Part shown: positions 3,638 to 38,479 of the stretch, one piece after another | Layout: each line of letters begins with the position of its first letter | How positions within the stretch are numbered: the stretch's first letter is position 1 | Assembly: GCA_045641985.1 (NCBI GenBank) | Contig: JAZUHY010000033.1 | Coordinates: 33,985 to 97,984, forward strand | Direction: 5' to 3' | Length of the DNA: 64,000 nucleotides | DNA from: Candidatus Cryptobacteroides sp. | GTDB taxonomy: Bacteria > Bacteroidota > Bacteroidia > Bacteroidales > UBA932 | The notes under the pieces: generated by a model | What the model saw: only the letters and a program-made list of their open reading frames with translations | Database searches by the model: none | Told to the model about the DNA's origin: nothing | Made by a program: the position numbers and the translations under genes

Positions 3638-5087
3638 GGCGATTCGGCTCAAGTTTTTCTACATAGACTCTGCCGAATCGGTCGGTCACGCGGACCTCGG
3701 GATCCTCTGCCGAGGGATTATATCTGCAGCGGAAGAGATTCGGAGAAGGGAAATATGCCAGCCAGGAAATCTTGTAGATACTTATATCAGTGAAAATCTC
3801 CTTGGCGTGGGGGTCCGTGCCGACAAAATTTTCCATATCGCAGACCTTGCGGCCGTTCTCCCAATACTCCACTTCCCACTTCTCGTCCTGATCCCAGACG
3901 TGGGCTATGATTTCACCGGGATAGTCCGGATGGTCGGTATAGACCTTCATCTGGCAGTCGGCCGGAAGGTTGTCGCCCTTGTAATACCAGCTCAGCTTCC
4001 TGCCGTCGCGGTCGAATACTTTGAACCCCGGAGGACATCCGTCAATGCATACATCCCCGCACCACCAGGCACCGCACAGACCGCCGATGTTGTGCTCCAC
4101 GATATTGTGGCTTATCGTTACATTGGAGTTGGTGTGCATATGGCCTGTAAGTATCGTGGTGTGATAGGGTTCCAGTATCTTGTACAGGGCCGTATTGTTG
4201 CACAGCAGGTCCGCGATGTCGGGATATGAGAAATCCTTTGTCGCAACCTTGTAAAGGGTAGTGGGAATGTGCATACAGACTACAAGTTCCGAACCCTTCT
4301 TCACGTTGGCAAGGTCTTTTTCCAGCCAGGAAAGCTGTCTTTCGTCGAGATAGCCGATGTAATACCAGTCCTTTCCCACAAAGAAATTGTCGTTCAGCAC
4401 CACGTAATGGACCTCTCCCACATTGAAACTGTAGTAAGTGGGGCCGAAGGTATTTTCGTAATCGGTGTGCGAAGTCTCGGAACTCCGCCCCCAGTTTGTC
4501 ATATCGTGATTGCCTATCACGTTGCGCCACAATATGTTGCCGCGCTCGAAAATTCTGTTGATGCGTGGATAGAGGCTGTGGTTCCATCCCACCATATCAC
4601 CCAGGTTGATGCCGAAGCACCAGCAATCCTTGATTCCGTCCGTCACGCCTCTGATATCCTCCAGACGCCCTTTCAGAGGTTCAAGGTCTTCCGGGTCGGA
4701 AATCTGCGGATCGGCCACGACTATCACCTTGTGGCGCTTGTCGTCGAAACGGTTGCGCGTGAGCGTGAAATCATATGTCTTTTTGGAGGAACCGGTGTTT
4801 TTTCCGTCAATCATTTTGTAGAAGCAGTCATCTCCTCCCATAGTCGTGGAGACGTAGCCCGCCGGAGTGGTGATGAACACAAAACGCCCCGAGTTCTCGC
4901 TGTAGGGGAGAGAATAATGCCCCTTGCTGTCAGTCAGGACAATGTTGACCCCGTCAGACACGGCTACTCCTTTCACTCCCTTGTCACCGCAACTTACGTT
5001 GCCTTCCAGTCCGAGGCAAACTTCTTCCGCCGGCATATTGCCTACAGACATTACGCACGCCAGCGCTACTGCAATAAATGTTTTCAT
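3615..5087 (-). CDS. Secreted calcineurin-like metallophosphoesterase with N- and C-terminal accessory domains
   Basis: Signal peptide plus motifs ADPQ, LGDMV, GNHD, CMHIP, GHMH. Confidence 0.9.
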   Translation of the reverse strand: MKTFIAVALACVMSVGNMPAEEVCLGLEGNVSCGDKGVKGVAVSDGVNIVLTDSKGHYSLPYSENSGRFVFITTPAGYVSTTMGGDDCFYKMIDGKNTGSSKKTYDFTLTRNRFDDKRHKVIVVADPQISDPEDLEPLKGRLEDIRGVTDGIKDCWCFGINLGDMVGWNHSLYPRINRIFERGNILWRNVIGNHDMTNWGRSSETSHTDYENTFGPTYYSFNVGEVHYVVLNDNFFVGKDWYYIGYLDERQLSWLEKDLANVKKGSELVVCMHIPTTLYKVATKDFSYPDIADLLCNNTALYKILEPYHTTILTGHMHTNSNVTISHNIVEHNIGGLCGAWWCGDVCIDGCPPGFKVFDRDGRKLSWYYKGDNLPADCQMKVYTDHPDYPGEIIAHVWDQDEKWEVEYWENGRKVCDMENFVGTDPHAKEIFTDISIYKISWLAYFPSPNLFRCRYNPSAEDPEVRVTDRFGRVYVEKLEPNRLSSPANL

Positions 5088-7872: not shown

Positions 7873-8973
7873 TTATCTGATATTGAAGTAGTCCTTGTAT
7901 CTGTCATAGAGATGTCCGGCCTGCAGATATGCGCTCTGTGGACTCATAAAGTGACTGAACTCGAAGGTGATGGCCTTGTCGTAGCCGCAGCGCTTGGCGG
8001 CCTCGAGCTTCATTCGGAGCTTGTCGAACTTGATGGGCAGGAAGTTGATGGGCATATCGCGGTCGAAGCTTTCGGCATTGGTCCAGCACTGCATTCCGTA
8101 GCGGTCCGCCAACTTCTTGTTGACGCTGAAGAAAGCGTCCAGTTCGTCATAATCTATGTGGCCGTCCTGGAATGCGCAGGCATCCACCACGTCGTGTATG
8201 CCGTCGAAAATCTCGTTCCATTCCTCTTCGTGCTTCTGCACGGAAACACCTTTCTTGCTCTTGAGAGATGTACCCATAATGGCTTTCTTGCCGTCTATCC
8301 AGGGGGATATGAATGTGGGCAGCCCGCCGGAAACATCCTTGCACATACGCCCCATCTCGTGGAACGCGCCTATCGCCCCCTTGGTGTTGCGGCTTATCTC
8401 GGTGCTGATATACCAGCCCTGGAAACTCTTGTGGTGGCCGTAAGCCTGCCATACTTCATCGATGACGAATTTGTTGTACTCCAGTTCCCAACTCATATCG
8501 CGTGTGTCCCAGTAGTGGCCGGTGTCATACAGGCCGAAATAGAATTTCATCCCGTATTTGTCGGCCAGCGAGAGGAAAAGTTCCACAAGGTCTATGGAAG
8601 GCATATAGCACCCCTTCTTCAGAAGGAACCGGCTGGGCCAGGTGATGAACTTGCGGTAGCCGCTGCGTATCATTATGACCGTGTCTATGCCTATGGCCTT
8701 CATATTCTGGAAATCCCTGTCCCATTCCACAGGACCCCAGTTCTGGTGGGGGATGTCGTGGGATATCTCATCGAGGAATGTTCCGGTGATGCGGAGTCCC
8801 GCTTCTTTAGGAACTATCAGGTAAGAGCCGTCCTCACTTGTCGGAAATCCGGGTTCGGCTATATCCTTGTCGGCAACTGCGCCTCTGCGCCTGCAGCTCT
8901 CCACAAAGGGAGTGACAGCCATTGCGGCAGTAGCTGCCGCCGCTGTTTTCAAGAATGTTCTTCGATCTGTCAT
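7873..8973 (-). CDS. DUF4434 protein (glycoside-hydrolase-like TIM barrel) with a Tat-type signal
   Basis: RRTFLK twin-arginine signal with a downstream Cys. ITGTFLDEISHDIPHQNWG, WYISTE and WTNAESF are typical of DUF4434. Confidence 0.8.
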   Translation of the reverse strand: MTDRRTFLKTAAAATAAMAVTPFVESCRRRGAVADKDIAEPGFPTSEDGSYLIVPKEAGLRITGTFLDEISHDIPHQNWGPVEWDRDFQNMKAIGIDTVIMIRSGYRKFITWPSRFLLKKGCYMPSIDLVELFLSLADKYGMKFYFGLYDTGHYWDTRDMSWELEYNKFVIDEVWQAYGHHKSFQGWYISTEISRNTKGAIGAFHEMGRMCKDVSGGLPTFISPWIDGKKAIMGTSLKSKKGVSVQKHEEEWNEIFDGIHDVVDACAFQDGHIDYDELDAFFSVNKKLADRYGMQCWTNAESFDRDMPINFLPIKFDKLRMKLEAAKRCGYDKAITFEFSHFMSPQSAYLQAGHLYDRYKDYFNIR

Positions 8974-10114: not shown

Positions 10115-11413
10115 TTATAGTTTGCAGATGAGCGTGGCCTGGGTGCAGTCCACGACCTTTACGCGGACGAGGTCGCCGGCCTTGTGCACGCTGTCTTCCC
10201 AGACGCACATCTTGCCCGTGCCGGTGCGGCCGCAGAGCTGCGACTGCCCTTTCTTGGAAGGCCCTTCCACAAGCACGTCGAAGCATTTGCCCACATCGCG
10301 CCGGTTGCTTTCCAGACTCAGTTTGTTCTGCAGCGCAATGATTTCCTCCAGGCGGCGCGTCTTGGTGTCGATATCCACGTCATCCGGATATTTCCGGGCG
10401 GCCAGAGTCCCCGGCCTTTCGGAATAGTAGAACATAAAGGCGGCGTCGAACCTGACTTTCTCGAACAGGCTCAGCGTGTCCTTGTGGTCTTCTTCAGTTT
10501 CGGAGCAGAATCCGGCAATCACGTCGGTGGTGATGGCGCAGTCCGGCATTATCGAGCGGATTCTTGCGACCCTGTCCAGATACCATTCCCTTGTATAGCG
10601 GCGGCGCATCTTCTCCAGAATCCTGTTGGAGCCCGATTGCACCGGGAGGTGAATGTGATGGCAGATATTGGGGTATGCCGACATAGTGTAAAGCACCTCG
10701 TCCGAGATGTCCTGCGGGTTGGAAGTGGAGAAGCGCACGCGCATATCGGGACAGGCCTCGGCCACCATTGCCAGCAGTTGCGCGAAAGTGGTGCCCTCGA
10801 AGTTGTAGGAATCTACGTTCTGGCCGAGGAGTGTCACTTCCCTGTACCCTTTCGAGCCGCATTCGCAGGCCTCACGGACTATGGTGCGGCTGTCTCTGCT
10901 TCTTTCGGCTCCTCTGGTGTAGGGAACAACGCAGTAGGAGCACACGTTGTTGCAGCCGCGCATAATTGAGATGAAGGCTGATACACCGTTCCTGTCAATC
11001 CGGACGGGGGAGATGTCACCGTAGGTCTCTTCCCGCGACAGGGTGACGTCAATCTGGGGATGACCGCCGGAGGCTGCGTCAAGAAGTCCGGGGAGATTAC
11101 GGTATGAGTCAGGCCCGGCTACGACATCAACCTTTCCGGAGTCGAGCAAAGCATTCTTGAGCCGCTCCGCCATACATCCCAGTATGCACACGATGACCTT
11201 GCGGCCGCGTCTCTGAAGATTGAACTGCTCTATCCTGCCCCATATCCTCTGCTCGGCATTGTCTCTGACGGAGCAGGTATTCGCCATTATGACGTCCGCC
11301 TCGTCAATGCTTTCCGTGCGTTCGTATCCGGCTTGCCCGAGTATGGAGAAAACGACTTCGGTATCGTTGACATTCATCTGGCAGCCGTAGGTCTCTATGT
11401 ATAGCTTTTTCAT
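10115..11413 (-). CDS. miaB: tRNA-2-methylthio-N6-dimethylallyladenosine synthase
   Basis: ETYGCQMN N-terminus, radical-SAM GCNNVCSYC, HIHLPVQSGS, C-terminal TRAM domain. Confidence 0.97.
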   Translation of the reverse strand: MKKLYIETYGCQMNVNDTEVVFSILGQAGYERTESIDEADVIMANTCSVRDNAEQRIWGRIEQFNLQRRGRKVIVCILGCMAERLKNALLDSGKVDVVAGPDSYRNLPGLLDAASGGHPQIDVTLSREETYGDISPVRIDRNGVSAFISIMRGCNNVCSYCVVPYTRGAERSRDSRTIVREACECGSKGYREVTLLGQNVDSYNFEGTTFAQLLAMVAEACPDMRVRFSTSNPQDISDEVLYTMSAYPNICHHIHLPVQSGSNRILEKMRRRYTREWYLDRVARIRSIMPDCAITTDVIAGFCSETEEDHKDTLSLFEKVRFDAAFMFYYSERPGTLAARKYPDDVDIDTKTRRLEEIIALQNKLSLESNRRDVGKCFDVLVEGPSKKGQSQLCGRTGTGKMCVWEDSVHKAGDLVRVKVVDCTQATLICKL

Positions 11414-32123: not shown

Positions 32124-33239
32124 ATGGATGAAAAAACAGCTTTTATTAATGGATTTCTAGACAATTTCGACGCACTCAATCCTGGAGAAACGGTCTTCAG
32201 ACAGGCTGTGGCTCTCTCTTTGGAAGCCGTCGCTCCGTACATTCTCGAACATCCCTCCGTGGAGGACCAGAACGTTATGGACAGGCTCGCAGAGCCGGAA
32301 CTCGCGGCGTCGTTCAGGGTTGTCTGGCTGGATGACGAAGGCGAGCCCAGAGTCAACAGGGGATTCTTTGTGAGGATGAACTCTGCCTTGGGCAAATGCC
32401 GCGGAAGGCTGCGTTTCCATAGTGACGTCAATATGGACGTTGTGAAGTACCTGGCTTACGAACAGGCCTTCAGTAATGCGCTTGCCCGGACTCCCGCCGG
32501 CGGATGCGCCGCCGGATCCGATTTCTCCGTCCGAGGCAAGTCCGACACGGAGGTGATGAACTTCTGCCAGAGCTTCATTACGGAACTGCAGAAATACTGC
32601 GGCTCCTCGGAGTTTACTGCGGAAGTGGGCGTGAGCGAGAGGGAGACCGGCTTCATCTTCGGGCAGCTCCGGCGACTGAAGGGAGAGGGTGCCGGCAGGC
32701 TGAGTACATTGGACACCGATGCCTGCGTTGTGCCTGAAAGCCTTTCCGGCAAGACGGTTGCCCTGTCCGGTTCAGGCAAGACAGCCCAGTACGTGGCATC
32801 GGAACTTGTGGCTTCCGGAGCCAGGGTTGTGGCACTGTCCGATTCCGAAGGTTTCGTTTATGACCGTGCCGGTATGGATGAGACTAAACTTGCCTATGTC
32901 GCGGAACTCAAGAACGTTTTCCACGGCTCTCTCAAGCGTTATGTCGAGAAATATCCCCAGGCCGAATACTTCTCGGGAGAGCATCCCTGGAGCGTGAAAT
33001 GCGATGCCGTCATAGCCTGCGCCTGCCAGAACGAGATAAATGCCGACGAGGCGAAAAAACTGCTGAAGAACGGCTGCACCCTGGTGGACGAGCTTTCGGG
33101 AATGTCCTCCTCCGCCGAGGCTTCGGCCGTGTTCGCCGCATCGGGAATCACATATATGTCCTCCTGCCTCTGTGGCGAGAAGTGCCTGAAAGCCTTCTCC
33201 CGGATTGCAGAGGCGATGCTTTCACAGGGACTTGTATAA
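32124..33239 (+). CDS. Glutamate dehydrogenase homologue lacking catalytic residues (putative pseudo-enzyme)
   Basis: Aligns to GDH along its length but has YKGG>CRGR, FKN>FSN and GAKGG>GCAAG. The RPEATG and NAGGV segments are deleted in-frame. The ORF is uninterrupted at 371 aa. Confidence 0.85.
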   Translation: MDEKTAFINGFLDNFDALNPGETVFRQAVALSLEAVAPYILEHPSVEDQNVMDRLAEPELAASFRVVWLDDEGEPRVNRGFFVRMNSALGKCRGRLRFHSDVNMDVVKYLAYEQAFSNALARTPAGGCAAGSDFSVRGKSDTEVMNFCQSFITELQKYCGSSEFTAEVGVSERETGFIFGQLRRLKGEGAGRLSTLDTDACVVPESLSGKTVALSGSGKTAQYVASELVASGARVVALSDSEGFVYDRAGMDETKLAYVAELKNVFHGSLKRYVEKYPQAEYFSGEHPWSVKCDAVIACACQNEINADEAKKLLKNGCTLVDELSGMSSSAEASAVFAASGITYMSSCLCGEKCLKAFSRIAEAMLSQGLV

Positions 33240-33251
33240 TTATATGAAATT

Positions 33252-35351
33252 ATGAAAACTTCAATTATTGTGGCGGCGGCCTGTGTGGCGCTGCTCAGTT
33301 CGTGTAAAATGGAAAACCCGCTTCTGAGCGAGTCGCCGCTTCCTTATGGCGCCCCGCAGTTCGACAAGATTAAGAATGAGCATTATCTCCCCGCTTTCGA
33401 GCAGGGCATAAAGGAGGGAAAGGCTGAGATTGATGCCATCGTTGCCAATCCTGATGCTCCCACATTCGAAAATACAATCGTGGCTTTGGAGGAGAGTGGC
33501 AGTACTTTGAGCAGGGTCTCGGGTATTTTCTACAATCTGATGGAGGCCGACACCGATGACGAAAAGCAGGAGATTGCGGAAAAGGTGTCTCCTATGATGA
33601 CTGAGTACTCTATGTATATCTCGCTCAACGAAGGCCTCTTCTCAAGGGTGAAGGCTGTGTATGAGCAGAGGGAAAGTCTCGGTCTTGACAGAGATCAGAT
33701 GAGACTTCTCGAGAAGACATACAAGGGCTTCGTCCGCGGCGGAGCAAACCTCAGCCCGGAGGACAAGGAGACGTACAGCAAATTGAACGAACAGTTGTCC
33801 CTTCTTGAACTCAAGTTCGGAAAGAATTCCCTTGCCGCCACAAATGCATTCAAGCTGAATCTGACTGATGAGGCTGACTTGGAAGGATTGCCGCAGTTCG
33901 TAAGGGATATGGGAGCCGCCACAGCGAAGGAGAATGGTCAGCAGGGATGGACCTTTGACCTGACCCATCCCAGTTACAGTCCGTTTATGCAGTACAGCTC
34001 CCGCAGGGATCTCAGGAAAACGCTTTATATGGCTTCTGCCACCAAGGCTGTAGGCGGTGAATTTGACAATACCGCCGTGTGCAAGGAAATTGTCGGTCTC
34101 AGAATTCAGATTGCCAATCTGCTGGGATACAAGACTTACGCCGACTATGCGGTGGAAAGCAGGATGGTGGGTTCCGTGGACCGTGTGCATTCGTTTATGA
34201 AGGAGCTTCTCGATCCGTCACTCCCGTCTGCACGCGCCGAGGTGGCCGCAGTGCTCAAGTATGCCAAGGCCAATGGATTCGAGGACAACGAACTTCAGCC
34301 CTGGGACTTTTCCTATTGGTCCGAGAAGTACAAGGATGCGCATTACGCCCTCAATGACGAAATTCTCAAGCCTTACTTCAAGCTGGAGGACTGCATAGAT
34401 GCGGTGTTCGGGCTTGCCACAAGACTGTTCGGCATCAGTTTCGAGGAGAGGACGGACATTCCCGTGTATCATAAGGACGTGAAGGTTTATGACGTGAAGG
34501 ATGCAGACGGGCGTCATCTGGCATTGTATTATGTGGATTTCTTCCCCCGCGCCTCCAAGAGGTCGGGAGCCTGGATGACCGAGTTCCGCGGGCAGAGCAT
34601 AAGGGACGGCGTCGAGTACCGTCCGTTCGTGAGCATCGTCACCAATTTCAGCAAGCCCACGGAGACTGCCCCTTCGCTTCTGACGCATTACGAGCTGACC
34701 ACATTTATGCACGAGTTCGGACATTCCCTTCACGGGATGTTGACGGAAGGACGCTACGAATCCCTCGCCGGCACCAACGTGGACCACGATTTTGTGGAAC
34801 TGCCTTCACAGATAATGGAGAACTGGGGCTATGAGAAAGACTTCCTCAAGCCCTTCGCAAAGCATTACGAAACCGGTGAAGTGATTCCCGATGAGCTGAT
34901 AGACAAGATTATTGCCTCGCAGAACTATCTGGCCGCCTACCTTCAGGTACGCCAGCTTCAGTTCGGTACCATAGATATGGCGTGGCATACACTCACCTCG
35001 CTGCCCGAAGACGGCACCGTCGAGTTCGAACGCAAGGCTGTGGAGCCACTTCTCACCTTGCCTGCCGTGGAAGGAGCCTGCTCCTCCACAACTTTCGGCC
35101 ATATATTCTCCAACAACTACTGCGCGGGTTACTACTCCTACAAGTGGGCCGAGGTGCTGGCCGCCGATGCCTACTCCCTTTTTGAGGAGAAAGGCATCTT
35201 CAACACCGAAGTGTCCGGTTCTTTCCGCGAAAACGTCCTTTCGAAGGGGAGCACCGAGGAGGAAGCCGTACTCTACCGCAGGTTCCGCGGACATGACCCG
35301 GAGCCGAAGGCTCTGCTGGTGAAACTCGGAATAGTTGCTCCGGCCAGATAG
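33252..35351 (+). CDS. dcp: M3 family metallopeptidase (peptidyl-dipeptidase Dcp-like), lipoprotein
   Basis: Lipobox LLSSC, KRSGAWM, HEFGH, VELPSQ.MENW, AGYYSYKWAEVL. Confidence 0.93.
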   Translation: MKTSIIVAAACVALLSSCKMENPLLSESPLPYGAPQFDKIKNEHYLPAFEQGIKEGKAEIDAIVANPDAPTFENTIVALEESGSTLSRVSGIFYNLMEADTDDEKQEIAEKVSPMMTEYSMYISLNEGLFSRVKAVYEQRESLGLDRDQMRLLEKTYKGFVRGGANLSPEDKETYSKLNEQLSLLELKFGKNSLAATNAFKLNLTDEADLEGLPQFVRDMGAATAKENGQQGWTFDLTHPSYSPFMQYSSRRDLRKTLYMASATKAVGGEFDNTAVCKEIVGLRIQIANLLGYKTYADYAVESRMVGSVDRVHSFMKELLDPSLPSARAEVAAVLKYAKANGFEDNELQPWDFSYWSEKYKDAHYALNDEILKPYFKLEDCIDAVFGLATRLFGISFEERTDIPVYHKDVKVYDVKDADGRHLALYYVDFFPRASKRSGAWMTEFRGQSIRDGVEYRPFVSIVTNFSKPTETAPSLLTHYELTTFMHEFGHSLHGMLTEGRYESLAGTNVDHDFVELPSQIMENWGYEKDFLKPFAKHYETGEVIPDELIDKIIASQNYLAAYLQVRQLQFGTIDMAWHTLTSLPEDGTVEFERKAVEPLLTLPAVEGACSSTTFGHIFSNNYCAGYYSYKWAEVLAADAYSLFEEKGIFNTEVSGSFRENVLSKGSTEEEAVLYRRFRGHDPEPKALLVKLGIVAPAR

Positions 35352-35357
35352 ACGGCC

Positions 35358-35409
35358 GGTAGTGCTTGCCGAAGCGTTCGAAGGTGGCCTTTTCGAGGGC
35401 CTCGCGGTC
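35358..35409. repeat. Left copy of a 52-bp direct repeat (orphan copy of the CoA-transferase 3' end)
   Basis: 47/52 identical to 37192-37243. The minus strand reads DREALEKATFERFGKHY. Confidence 0.92.
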
Positions 35410-35423
35410 ATGGGCCCTTTTGC

Positions 35424-35448
35424 GTCATTGCGGGCCCGACCCGCAATC
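35424..35448. repeat. REP-like palindrome GTCATTGCGGG-CCCGA-CCCGCAATC
   Basis: Perfect 8-bp stem ATTGCGGG/CCCGCAAT with a 5-nt loop, preceded by GTC. Only one copy seen in the window. Confidence 0.5.
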
Positions 35449-35467
35449 CCCTGATGAAAGAGATCCT

Positions 35468-35509
35468 GGCACTTGCGCGCAGTCACCGGCGCAAGTGCCG
35501 ACTTTTTTT
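35468..35509 (+). terminator. Intrinsic terminator (ends the dcp transcript upstream of the ATPase promoter)
   Basis: 11-bp stem GGCACTTGCGC/GCGCAAGTGCC, 10-nt loop, then a T7 run. Confidence 0.85.
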
Positions 35510-35535
35510 GTTTTGCAATTGTGAAAACGAAGAAT

Positions 35536-35543
35536 TAACTTTG
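35536..35543 (+). promoter_or_regulatory. -7 box of the ATPase-nuclease gene
   Basis: TAACTTTG, 6 nt before the ATG at 35550. Confidence 0.7.
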
Positions 35544-35549
35544 CAGGGT

Positions 35550-37118
35550 ATGGAAACACGGACACAGCTTCGCAACCTGCCCATCGGCATCCAGAACTTC
35601 GAGAGCCTGAGAAACGATGGATACCTTTACGTTGACAAGACGGAACAGATATACAGGCTCGTCACTACGGGGAGGTACTATTTTATCTCCCGTCCGCGCA
35701 GGTTCGGGAAGAGCCTTCTGATGAGTACGATTCATTCGTTTTTCAGTGGCAGGAAGGACCTTTTCGAGGGCTTGGCCGTTGCCTCCAAGCCGGACGTCAC
35801 CTGGGAGAAGCACCCGGTGTTGCATCTGGACCTGAACGCACAGGAATATGCCACAAAGGAAAAATTGCAGTATGTGTTGAATGAATTCCTTCTTCTTCAC
35901 GAGCGGCGTTACGATATTGACAGTGATAAGAGTGACAATTTCGGCCCGCGTTTTTCAAATGTCATCCGTCGCGCTTTCGAAAAGACCGGCCGCAAGGTTG
36001 TGATACTGGTTGACGAGTACGACAAGCCTATGCTTCAGGCCATCGGCAATCCGGAGTTGCAGGAAGCATACCGCGCTACGCTGAAGGGCTTCTACGGGGC
36101 CCTCAAGTCGATGGACGGCTGCATAAGGTTTGCCCTTCTGACGGGCGTGACGAAGTTCGGCAAGGTGAGCGTGTTCAGCGACCTGAACAATCTCAACGAC
36201 ATCTCGATGGATGCTGAGTTCTATGATGTCTGCGGCATCACTGAAGGAGAACTGCGCACTCAGTTTGTCCCGGAGATCAAACAGCTGGCCGAAAAATACG
36301 GCATCACGGAGGACGAGTGTCTGACGGCTCTCCGGGAAAAGTATGACGGATATCACTTTGAAGAATCTGTCCCCGGCGTCTATAACCCGTTCAGCCTGCT
36401 CAACGCATTCTATAAAAAGAAATTCGGCAGCTACTGGTTCGAGACCGGCACTCCGACCTATCTTGTGGAACTGCTGCAGGAACGCGACTATGACCTCGAA
36501 AAGATGTCGCGCGTAACGGCCGACGCTGACGAGCTGAACAGCATCGACTCGACATCTACCAATCCGATACCCGTGATTTACCAGAGCGGATACCTCACCA
36601 TCAAGGGATTTGACCCGGAGTTCGGCACCTATACGCTGGGCTTTCCAAACGCCGAAGTGGAGGAAGGCTTTACCAAATTTCTGATGCCCAGCTATATCCA
36701 CCGTCAGGAGAACCGTTCGCCGTTCCTGATAAACAATTTTGTGGAGGATGTGAGAAACGGCAACACGGAACAGTTCATAGGACGCCTCCGCTCCCTTTTC
36801 GCCGACACCCCCTATGAGATAATCCGCAATATGGAGACCCACTACCGCAACGTGGTGTGGCTTCTATTCAAGCTGATGGGCTTCTACACCCAGGCCGAGT
36901 ACCGCACCAGCGAGGGACGCATAGACCTCGTGGTAAAGACCCCGAAGTTCTGCTATGTGCTGGAGTTCAAGCTCGACGGCACCGCCGAAGAGGCTCTGGC
37001 CCAGATTCAGGACAAGAACTACACCCTTCCCTTCGCCGTCGAGGACCAGCAGATTGTCCGCATCGGCATCAACTTCGACTCCGCCACCCGCAACATCGGC
37101 AAGGTCCTCGTCGGGTAA
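35550..37118 (+). CDS. AAA-ATPase-like protein with a C-terminal PD-(D/E)XK nuclease domain (Bacteroidales 'ATP-binding protein')
   Basis: LPIGIQNFE, YVDKT, Walker A RPRRFGKS, Walker B ILVDEYD, YDGYHF, YNPFS, WFETGTP, nuclease GRIDL..LEFK. Confidence 0.93.
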   Translation: METRTQLRNLPIGIQNFESLRNDGYLYVDKTEQIYRLVTTGRYYFISRPRRFGKSLLMSTIHSFFSGRKDLFEGLAVASKPDVTWEKHPVLHLDLNAQEYATKEKLQYVLNEFLLLHERRYDIDSDKSDNFGPRFSNVIRRAFEKTGRKVVILVDEYDKPMLQAIGNPELQEAYRATLKGFYGALKSMDGCIRFALLTGVTKFGKVSVFSDLNNLNDISMDAEFYDVCGITEGELRTQFVPEIKQLAEKYGITEDECLTALREKYDGYHFEESVPGVYNPFSLLNAFYKKKFGSYWFETGTPTYLVELLQERDYDLEKMSRVTADADELNSIDSTSTNPIPVIYQSGYLTIKGFDPEFGTYTLGFPNAEVEEGFTKFLMPSYIHRQENRSPFLINNFVEDVRNGNTEQFIGRLRSLFADTPYEIIRNMETHYRNVVWLLFKLMGFYTQAEYRTSEGRIDLVVKTPKFCYVLEFKLDGTAEEALAQIQDKNYTLPFAVEDQQIVRIGINFDSATRNIGKVLVG

Positions 37119-37121
37119 GAC

Positions 37122-37156
37122 AATAATGGGATGGCTTTTTTAGTCATCCCATTATT
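37122..37156. terminator. Hairpin between the convergent ATPase and CoA-transferase genes
   Basis: AATAATGGGATGGC / GTCATCCCATTATT stem (one G-T pair) with AT-rich flanks. Confidence 0.75.
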
Positions 37157-37177
37157 ATTGTTGTTATTGATTGTGAA

Positions 37178-38479
37178 TTACTTCACAATCAGGTAGTGCT
37201 TTCCGAAACGTTCGAAGGCGGCTCTTTCGAGGGCCTCGCGGTCGTCCGGATGGGCGATGGAGGTCAGCAGTCGGGCGCGTTCCTGATAGCTCTTGCCGTA
37301 AAGGTTGACGGCACCCCACTCGGTCACGACCCAGTGCACGTGGAATCTTGAAGTCACGACGCCTGCGCCTTCCTTCAGTACCGGTGAGATTTTGGACACA
37401 CCTTTCTTCGTGCGTGAGGACATTGCTATGATAGGCACGCCTTCCTGGGCGAGGGATGCTCCGTAGATGAAGTCGATCTGTCCGCCGACGCCGCTGAAGT
37501 GTTTCGTGCCGATGGAGTCTGCGCAGACCTGGCCGGTGATGTCCATCTCCACAGCCGAGTTGATGGCAGTCATTCGGGGGTTCTTGGCAATCACATACGG
37601 ATCGTTGGTGTAGCCCACGTCCATCATCAATACGTCAGGGTTGTTGTCGATGAAGTCATAGACTTTCTGTGAACCCATCAGGAAAGTGGAAACTATCTTG
37701 CCCTTGTCGGTAACCTTGTTGGAGCCGTCGATGACGCCCTTTTCCACCAGGTCGAGCACGCCGTCAGCGAACATCTCCGTGTGGATACCGAGGTTCTTGT
37801 GGTTTCCGAGCTTTGCCAGAATGGCGTTGGGGAGCGCCCCGATTCCAAGCTGGAGACAGGCTCCGTCCTTGATGAGAGGCAGACAGTTCTCTCCGATGGC
37901 CAGGTCGGTCTCGTCAGGTACGACGACTTTGGCTTCCATAAGAGGAGTATCGTCCTGGACAAAGATATCTATCTGGTCCAATGAAATCATTGCCTGGCCG
38001 AAAGCGCGGGGTACGTGCGGATTGACTACGGCAATTACCGTTTTCGCACACTCCACGGCGGCGAGGGTCGCATCGACACTGGTGCCGAGGGACACCATTC
38101 CGTTCTCGTCCGGAGGACAAACCTGAATCATTGCCACGTCGCACGGCACGGCTCCGCAGCGGTACAGTTTCTGAGTCTCGGAAAGGAATACCGGGATGTA
38201 GTCTGCATATCCGCTCTGAACGCCTGCGCGGACATTACCGCCGATGAAGAAGCCCTGATGGAAGAAGATTCCGCTGTATTTCTCGTCAACGTAGGGCGCC
38301 GGGCCTTCAGTGTGAAGATGATGGATGCGCACATCCTCCAGTTCTCCGGCATCGCCTCTGCGGCAAAGGGCCTGAATCAGGCACTGCGGTGCGCTTGCAA
38401 CGCTGCTGAAATGTATGTGGTCGCCGGATTTGACAACCTTAACGGCTTCGTCAGCACTTACAAAATTAATCTGTTTCAT
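37178..38479 (-). CDS. Acetyl-CoA hydrolase/transferase family CoA-transferase (likely propionyl-CoA:succinate or acetate CoA-transferase)
   Basis: LQLGIGALP, HTEMFADG (catalytic Glu region), SGVGGQIDF, VVTEWG. Last gene of the propionate operon. Confidence 0.9.
   Translation of the reverse strand: MKQINFVSADEAVKVVKSGDHIHFSSVASAPQCLIQALCRRGDAGELEDVRIHHLHTEGPAPYVDEKYSGIFFHQGFFIGGNVRAGVQSGYADYIPVFLSETQKLYRCGAVPCDVAMIQVCPPDENGMVSLGTSVDATLAAVECAKTVIAVVNPHVPRAFGQAMISLDQIDIFVQDDTPLMEAKVVVPDETDLAIGENCLPLIKDGACLQLGIGALPNAILAKLGNHKNLGIHTEMFADGVLDLVEKGVIDGSNKVTDKGKIVSTFLMGSQKVYDFIDNNPDVLMMDVGYTNDPYVIAKNPRMTAINSAVEMDITGQVCADSIGTKHFSGVGGQIDFIYGASLAQEGVPIIAMSSRTKKGVSKISPVLKEGAGVVTSRFHVHWVVTEWGAVNLYGKSYQERARLLTSIAHPDDREALERAAFERFGKHYLIVK
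37192..37243. repeat. Right copy of the 52-bp direct repeat (in-frame 3' end of the CoA-transferase)
   Basis: The minus strand reads DREALERAAFERFGKHY; 47/52 identical to 35358-35409. Confidence 0.92.

Follow-up and report, generated by a model that had tools for sequence, protein, structure and literature searches.

Insertion with long target duplication has been described for restriction-modification genes and other nuclease genes (Nobusato et al., 2000, cited in Furuta et al., 2010; PMC2853133). The class is defined by direct repeats of more than 30 bp that occur as a single copy in the empty genome, by the lack of mobility genes and by an insert of less than 20 kb, and its mechanism is unknown (PMC2853133). 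Genes of the DUF1703 family, which combine the domains PF09820 and PF08011, form expanded sets of paralogues in Cardinium, for example; the family is multi-copy, horizontally spread and recombining, with an unknown function (PMC6387759). Here, we describe a solitary DUF1703 gene, encoding an ATPase-nuclease, in a 64,000-nt window (the whole stretch of DNA analyzed) of contig JAZUHY010000033.1 from the gut bacterium Candidatus Cryptobacteroides sp. (Bacteroidales; assembly GCA_045641985.1). The gene lies between dcp, which encodes an M3 peptidyl-dipeptidase, and the CoA-transferase gene that ends a propionate operon, and has on either side of it a copy of a 52-nt piece of the CoA-transferase gene. 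An earlier note on this DNA had proposed that a circular element integrated here by way of the repeat and brought its own version of the gene end. We regard the locus as a clear, though ordinary, case of an established class with an open mechanism: like insertions with long target duplication, it holds a nuclease-type gene without a mobility gene, repeats of more than 30 bp and a target that overlaps the 3' end of a gene. On balance, we favor an integrase-less, illegitimate insertion of a gene module at a rearrangement hot spot, with the 52-nt repeat being a recombination scar and not the core of an attachment (att) site.

Relatives informative for the locus were reached via proteins 95-99% identical to the CoA-transferase, which led to a sister clade whose CoA-transferase genes are 87-89% identical at the DNA level; the first 24 genus relatives shared no gene order at the locus and were uninformative as empty sites. 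The earlier note had predicted alleles in which dcp directly abuts the CoA-transferase gene, and this arrangement was found in the sister species G307 and in the metagenome contigs L034 and L036. G307 has the gene order gdh, gdh2, dcp, CoA-transferase (dcp 95% aa identical), the two contigs show the same arrangement, and in all three dcp and the CoA-transferase gene converge across a spacer of ~105 nt. Relative to these lineages, the ATPase-nuclease gene is an insertion. The stop codons of dcp and of the ATPase gene mark the two ends of the extra DNA (35352-37118, 1.77 kb). On the right, homology to the empty sites restarts at GGTAAGACAA, which overlaps the ATPase stop codon in the alignment with G307. 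On the left, homology to contig L174 (dcp 94% aa identical) ends at 35352, one base past the dcp stop codon, and that to G307 and L034 ends at ~35332-35351. In the window, the extra DNA takes the place of a dispersed 24-nt hairpin element that the empty site has.

By repeat search, a single 52-nt direct repeat pair was identified in the window (35358-35409 and 37192-37243), with the copies 1834 nt apart and identical at 47 of 52 positions; by chance, ~2e-12 such pairs would be expected anywhere in 64 kb. The minus-strand translations of the two copies, DREALEKATFERFGKHY and DREALERAAFERFGKHY, both correspond to the C-terminus of the CoA-transferase. Two of the five differing bases are synonymous, the other three give K/R and T/A changes, and the longest exact match between the copies is 19 nt. 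The repeat was thus as the earlier note had described it, and the features that it had listed between the copies are all present, i.e., a hairpin resembling repetitive extragenic palindromes (REPs), a hairpin with a T-run, a promoter, the ATPase-nuclease gene, a terminator and the CoA-transferase stop codon (37178-37180). The recurrence of ATGGGC past a 6-nt gap beyond the 52 nt is also real, but its extension of the repeat to 58 nt is ambiguous, given that this stretch with its surrounding bases, GTCATGGGCC, could just as well be a degenerate half-unit belonging to the REP array next to it.

The inserted DNA is not delimited by the repeats, since the right copy begins at 37192 and so sits 73 nt inside native sequence, beyond the end of the insert at 37118. 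The ~1.8-kb cassette bounded by repeats, as first proposed, does not fit this geometry, and the 1834-nt interval between the copies is not the mobile unit. Neither did an element supply the CoA-transferase gene with a new end, as had been suggested. The right copy is identical at 52 of 52 positions to the single copy in G307, the terminator beside it is homologous to that of the empty sites, and the LIVK-stop tail is common to the sister clade, of which it is the normal tail. The present end of the CoA-transferase gene and its terminator are native.

The left copy lacks the tail, the stop codon and the terminator, and past ...GKHY its reading frame continues for 53 codons antisense to dcp; it is a non-functional scar. 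When compared with eleven sister alleles, it is closest to the window/G307 allele (47/52, vs at most 44 for the ten others), with which it shares a derived GAAGG state. Because the right copy is identical to G307, the five substitutions all occurred in the left copy. The closest allele and the shared derived state together show that the left copy was copied from the lineage's own gene and then drifted. A foreign origin, whereby an element would have carried in its own version of the gene end, was rejected on account of the same GAAGG state.

These data bear directly on a Campbell-type origin, according to which a circle bearing the module and ~125 nt of the CoA-transferase end would have integrated by a single homologous crossover, followed by a ~100-nt deletion of the left tail and terminator. 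Whether through such a circle or through long target duplication, an origin of this kind is possible only with that later deletion. Like Campbell-type elements at the 3' ends of genes and tRNAs, the locus has a target 3' end that is partly duplicated on either side of the insert, and the direct repeat flanks a gene whose empty sites are single-copy. A homologous crossover would need no integrase. Moreover, the closest homologue of the ATPase elsewhere lies in genome G215 within a clean duplicate-insert-duplicate structure, with a gene-end duplication of 127-132 nt that is near the 125 nt implied here. Unlike Campbell-type elements, however, the locus has no integrase, its repeats lie off the ends of the insert, the gene end is native and the displaced copy has no stop codon. 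The donor would already have to hold the module beside the same gene end, which leads to a regress, an additional deletion is needed, and the left copy derives from the lineage's own allele. With a longest exact match of only 19 nt, excision would be rare. A crossover between the copies would also exchange the LIVK-stop for the 53-codon extension antisense to dcp, and the CoA-transferase, having lost its native tail and stop codon and hence its proper C-terminus, would be broken. Given that strain-level variation, in addition, breaks at a hairpin and not at the repeats (see below), we regard the circle as unlikely.

Two conspecific contigs from other samples, L172 (95.4% nt identical) and L173 (97.3%), match the window from 35465 through the ATPase gene and the terminator into the CoA-transferase gene. 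To the left of 35465, the REP, the left copy and dcp are missing from both contigs, and similarity to the window is lost entirely. Their left flank instead holds two genes, for a lipoprotein and an outer-membrane protein, in a degraded copy with an internal deletion. Intact versions of both (88% nt identical) adjoin typA on another contig of the window's own genome, and similarity between the two places stops with the final codon of the gene for the outer-membrane protein. Position 35465 is the left edge of the hairpin that precedes the promoter. The same edge is seen in G215 (locus L039), where the closest homologue elsewhere (86% aa identical) shows homology that begins at the hairpin and ends at the stop codon, with compensatory stem changes in the hairpin between the window and G215. 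From the strain break and the extent of homology to G215 it follows that the varying unit is a discrete module of hairpin, promoter and DUF1703 gene (~35465-37118, ~1.65 kb), and not the interval between the repeats.

The strain comparison also raises the question of whether the left copy might be a stump of a former CoA-transferase end, left behind when a block of module, terminator and CoA-transferase was imported from an L172/L173-type donor by homology-facilitated illegitimate recombination between conspecifics, or else what is left of an old tandem paralogue. Three strains with different left flanks do indeed have the block in common, from 35465 through the CoA-transferase gene, the left copy falls within the window/G307 allele group, and another sister genome, G147, contains a decayed fragment of the CoA-transferase gene in addition to a second copy, which sits at a contig end. 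Such a stump would nevertheless be predicted to keep the tail, stop codon and terminator, none of which is there. At the edge of the hairpin, L172-type donors lack a REP, the window's own genome has no CoA-transferase paralogue, and all five differences fall on the left copy, with the right copy being equal to the G307 allele. This explanation is therefore rather unlikely. That the left copy was made by an assembly artefact, i.e., a chimeric join of co-occurring related strains, is highly improbable. The assembly is metagenome-derived and consists of 116 contigs, and related species occur in the same kind of samples. Yet the fragment has unique sequence on both sides and lies in a region of uniform base composition, its exact matches to the right copy reach no more than 19 bases, which is not enough for a k-mer misjoin, and the join of ATPase gene, terminator and CoA-transferase gene was reproduced in two independent assemblies.

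As for the cargo of the module, both domains of the encoded protein score above the curated cut-offs (PF09820, N-terminal, 231.7 bits vs a cut-off of 26.1; PF08011, C-terminal, 78.4 vs 25.5) and the motifs FGKS, VILVDE and GRID...EFK are intact, which places the gene in the DUF1703 ATPase-nuclease family. Its two-domain architecture is identical to that described in Cardinium; unlike there, one family member is resolved here as a discrete module of hairpin, promoter and gene, for which an empty site and a strain-level polymorphism of the flank were found. The promoter-like region is conserved upstream of close homologues. Its boxes follow the well-established consensus of Bacteroides promoters. 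The insert is integrase-less, as the earlier note had it: the sole gene in 35352-37118 is the AAA-ATPase_like + PDDEXK_9 gene, no integrase or transposase was found there, and the neighboring genes are metabolic, with methylmalonyl-CoA mutase genes also among those of the region. The ATPase-nuclease had no match to PADLOC defence models at E <= 0.01, searches of the module against NCBIfam, PDB and Rfam gave no match, and exact-protein look-ups of three window proteins returned none. A compositional anomaly at the locus was considered and rejected, base composition being uniform across the region.

Members of the ATPase clade (at least 77% aa identity) occur in five of 401 genus genomes, in a different context each time. 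G307 has no homologue of the ATPase, G147 has two copies in non-syntenic contexts, a metagenome scan with the ATPase as query returned only homologues of at most 65% identity, and no source locus for the module was found in these searches. Among more distant members of the family, DUF1703 genes at human-gut metagenome loci (L093-L105, L102, L116) are 93-96% identical in DNA across the whole open reading frame (ORF) and lose all similarity within ~10 nt of the start and stop codons, which indicates ORF-sized exchange or movement among loci. One could envisage DUF1703 genes as autonomous selfish modules of hairpin, promoter and gene, whose own nuclease would promote insertion beside stop codons or terminator hairpins and leave behind long duplications of variable extent, or stumps, of the gene next to them. 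The discrete edges at hairpin and stop codon, the scars here and in G215, the patchy distribution and the ORF-only similarity at 93% identity or more all fit this idea, which we nonetheless hold to be unlikely, with a modest chance of being right.

We return to illegitimate insertion of the module at a hot spot, for which both the mechanism of recombination and the order of events are inferred. After the split from G307, the ~1.65-kb module would have landed between the dcp stop codon and the native CoA-transferase terminator. Entry would have been by integrase-less illegitimate recombination at a fragile convergent spacer, one that is found rearranged in almost every sister species. At the right junction, the short microhomology GGTAAGACAA, which includes the ATPase stop codon, may have served for joining. 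The left junction is a patchwork in which 6-nt filler is followed by a 52-nt internal piece from the 3' end of the lineage's own CoA-transferase gene and then by a REP-like hairpin. This 52-nt scar could be the eroded remnant of a target duplication of ~125 nt (terminator, tail and gene end) or, as a second option, a short patch for which the nearby gene served as template when a break was repaired or templates were switched; in either case it has drifted afterwards by five substitutions.

The hot-spot behavior of the spacer is apparent from the sister clade, as the DNA downstream of the CoA-transferase gene differs in nine of ten readable sister genomes, being variously a DASS transporter gene, gdh directly adjacent, an inverted dcp or unrelated genes. 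In G147 (L059, contig C35), a decayed internal CoA-transferase fragment (residues ~364-402, stored coordinates 3660-3780) with a stop codon and a frameshift lies on the other side of a 2.3-kb insert, whose three genes have no Pfam domain; the second CoA-transferase copy of this genome (L060, end of contig C37) stops at the contig edge, at residue 366. Scars also recur at another family member. In G215, the intact 3' end of a neighboring gene and a duplicate of it (132 nt, 94.7% identical) enclose the ATPase module together with one small ORF. The duplicate, which is on the opposite side of the ATPase gene from the intact end, retains the stop codon and native downstream DNA, and a 10-nt microhomology, CCCGCAATCC, connects it to a REP. 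The earlier note had proposed a survey of other family members for duplicated host-gene ends; such an end was seen in G215 but not at L106, L124 and L139, where the flanking repeats around the genes proved to be tandem gene arrays only.

Scars of homology-facilitated illegitimate recombination and of microhomology-mediated recombination are reportedly known from work by de Vries and Wackernagel in 2002 and by Prudhomme and colleagues in the same year. Our locus is like them in its microhomology junctions (GGTAAGACAA here and CCCGCAATCC in G215), in the gene stumps beside accessory genes and in its hot-spot behavior. It is unlike them in that the events in the literature usually delete recipient DNA and do not duplicate it, and in that neither a donor nor a homologous anchor was identified here. 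Several further points weigh against the insertion that we propose. No single simple event yields the present structure, and for a canonical target duplication the left side must later have lost ~100 nt comprising terminator, tail and 24-nt element. No source was found for the module, whose nearest copy elsewhere is 86% identical at the aa level. To our knowledge, templated patch insertions are poorly documented in bacteria. Finally, the assembly is a metagenome-assembled genome, and the L172 and L173 contigs (2.4-3.5 kb) are too short to order the events at the left flank, i.e., window type vs L172 type.

Insertions with long target duplication provide the closest comparison. Here too, both 52-nt repeats align to the single copy in G307 (left 47/52, right 52/52), and the insert is a single gene in 1.77 kb, well within 20 kb. 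The arrangement flank-duplication-insert-duplication-flank holds only if the duplication is taken as ~125 nt (37119-37243), the left one then losing ~73 nt together with the 24-nt element. The locus differs from that class in that its repeats are not symmetric, with a 73-nt tail and terminator on the right only and a REP and 6-nt filler on the left, in that its cargo is a DUF1703 ATPase-nuclease and not a restriction-modification pair, and in that the copies are 10% diverged. A DUF1703 case is thereby added to this mechanistically unexplained class. The locus is a well-resolved example of solitary nuclease-type accessory genes entering chromosomes without recombinases, in which an empty site, both junctions, strain-level breakage at a conserved hairpin, an independent second scar next to the closest homologue and a hot spot with turnover in nearly every sister species are documented together. 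It cautions that not every duplicated gene end is an att site, and the hairpin-promoter-gene module offers a testable unit for whether the encoded nuclease aids its own spread. Since the propionate-pathway operon of the host is intact, no physiological consequence is implied.

The features of the locus are listed in Table 1.

Table 1. Features from dcp to the CoA-transferase gene, in window coordinates.
Feature	Position	Strand	Evidence and remarks
dcp (M3 peptidyl-dipeptidase)	33252-35351	+	Pfam Peptidase_M3, 1.6e-128; rearranged DNA begins right after the stop codon
6-nt filler ACGGCC, from dcp stop codon to orphan fragment	35352-35357	.	Without counterpart in the empty sites or L174
Left copy, orphan internal CoA-transferase 3'-end fragment (residues ~413-429)	35358-35409	-	47/52 identical to right copy
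REP-like dispersed hairpin repeat, stem 35427-35434 / 35440-35447, degenerate half-unit on left	35410-35466	.	Directly adjoins the orphan fragment; folding
Hairpin + T-run, left end of module, now terminator behind dcp	35468-35509	+	Fold -14.8 kcal/mol, z = -4.4; terminator-like scan match
Promoter-like region: TTTG 35512-35515, TAACTTTG 35536-35543	35510-35549	+	Read from sequence, Bacteroidetes-type boxes
Solitary DUF1703 gene, AAA-ATPase_like + PDDEXK_9, 522 aa, intact	35550-37118	+	Pfam 9.1e-69 and 4.7e-22
Native convergent spacer, terminator hairpin 37122-37156	37119-37177	.	Homologous to dcp/CoA-transferase spacer of G307, L034, L036; terminator scan + fold
CoA-transferase, last gene of propionate operon	37178-38479	-	Pfam AcetylCoA_hyd_C + AcetylCoA_hydro; holds right copy 37192-37243, native tail LIVK*

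The REP-like hairpin (35427-35447) has ~8 copies in the genome, often in tandem, and is also present in G215. A dispersed hairpin repeat of this kind recalls the system of REPs and REP-associated tyrosine transposases (RAYTs). However, a search for the cognate Y1 transposase (PF01797) gave no match in the window's own 96%-complete genome, and RAYT-driven transposition of the REP was rejected. The 24-nt hairpin element in the empty-site spacer of G307, L034 and L036, GGCGCATCAGCGCCGTGTCGAAGG, belongs to a second family of small dispersed terminator-like repeats; it recurs just past stop codons on contigs C31, C109, C111 and C115 of the window's own genome, G000, with a weaker match on C12.

At the other border of the extra DNA, the C-terminus of dcp (window 35333-35351, compared with L174, G307, L034, L037 and L038) exists in two allelic forms, GI[IVL]K-stop and GIVAP[AT][RK]-stop, which differ by small indels around the stop codon. 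A recent truncation of the dcp tail by the insertion event was considered and rejected, as the window form GIVAPAR* is an allelic form that is also found in L174 (GIVAPTK*). Further upstream, a degenerate second glutamate-dehydrogenase-like gene (window 32124-33239) lies behind gdh. It is kept in G307 (92% aa identical) and G270 (69%); in G358 and G332, gdh is followed by the next gene without it (sister loci compared: L055, L065, L063 and L064).

Other nuclease-type genes and family members were encountered in the course of the analysis. Genome G000 holds at least one more DUF1703 copy, which is split across contig ends (C112 1-213 and C100 3-158); its C-terminal piece is 93% and its N-terminal piece 75% identical at the aa level, and neither has CoA-transferase or REP flanks. 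At L040, an ATPase homologue (84% aa identical) lies between two diverged paralogous lipoprotein genes, whose upstream 322 nt (4612-4929 and 8506-8820) are 93% identical; this repeat between two old paralogues may reflect either gene conversion or a large old duplication. Finally, contig C14 of G000 carries a solitary gene for a 313-aa PDDEXK_2 protein ("nuclease family transposase"; 10121-11224, locus L156, 2122-3225), which has a 49-nt direct repeat on either side (copies 92% identical) and lies beside a truncated TonB-receptor gene near the end of the contig.

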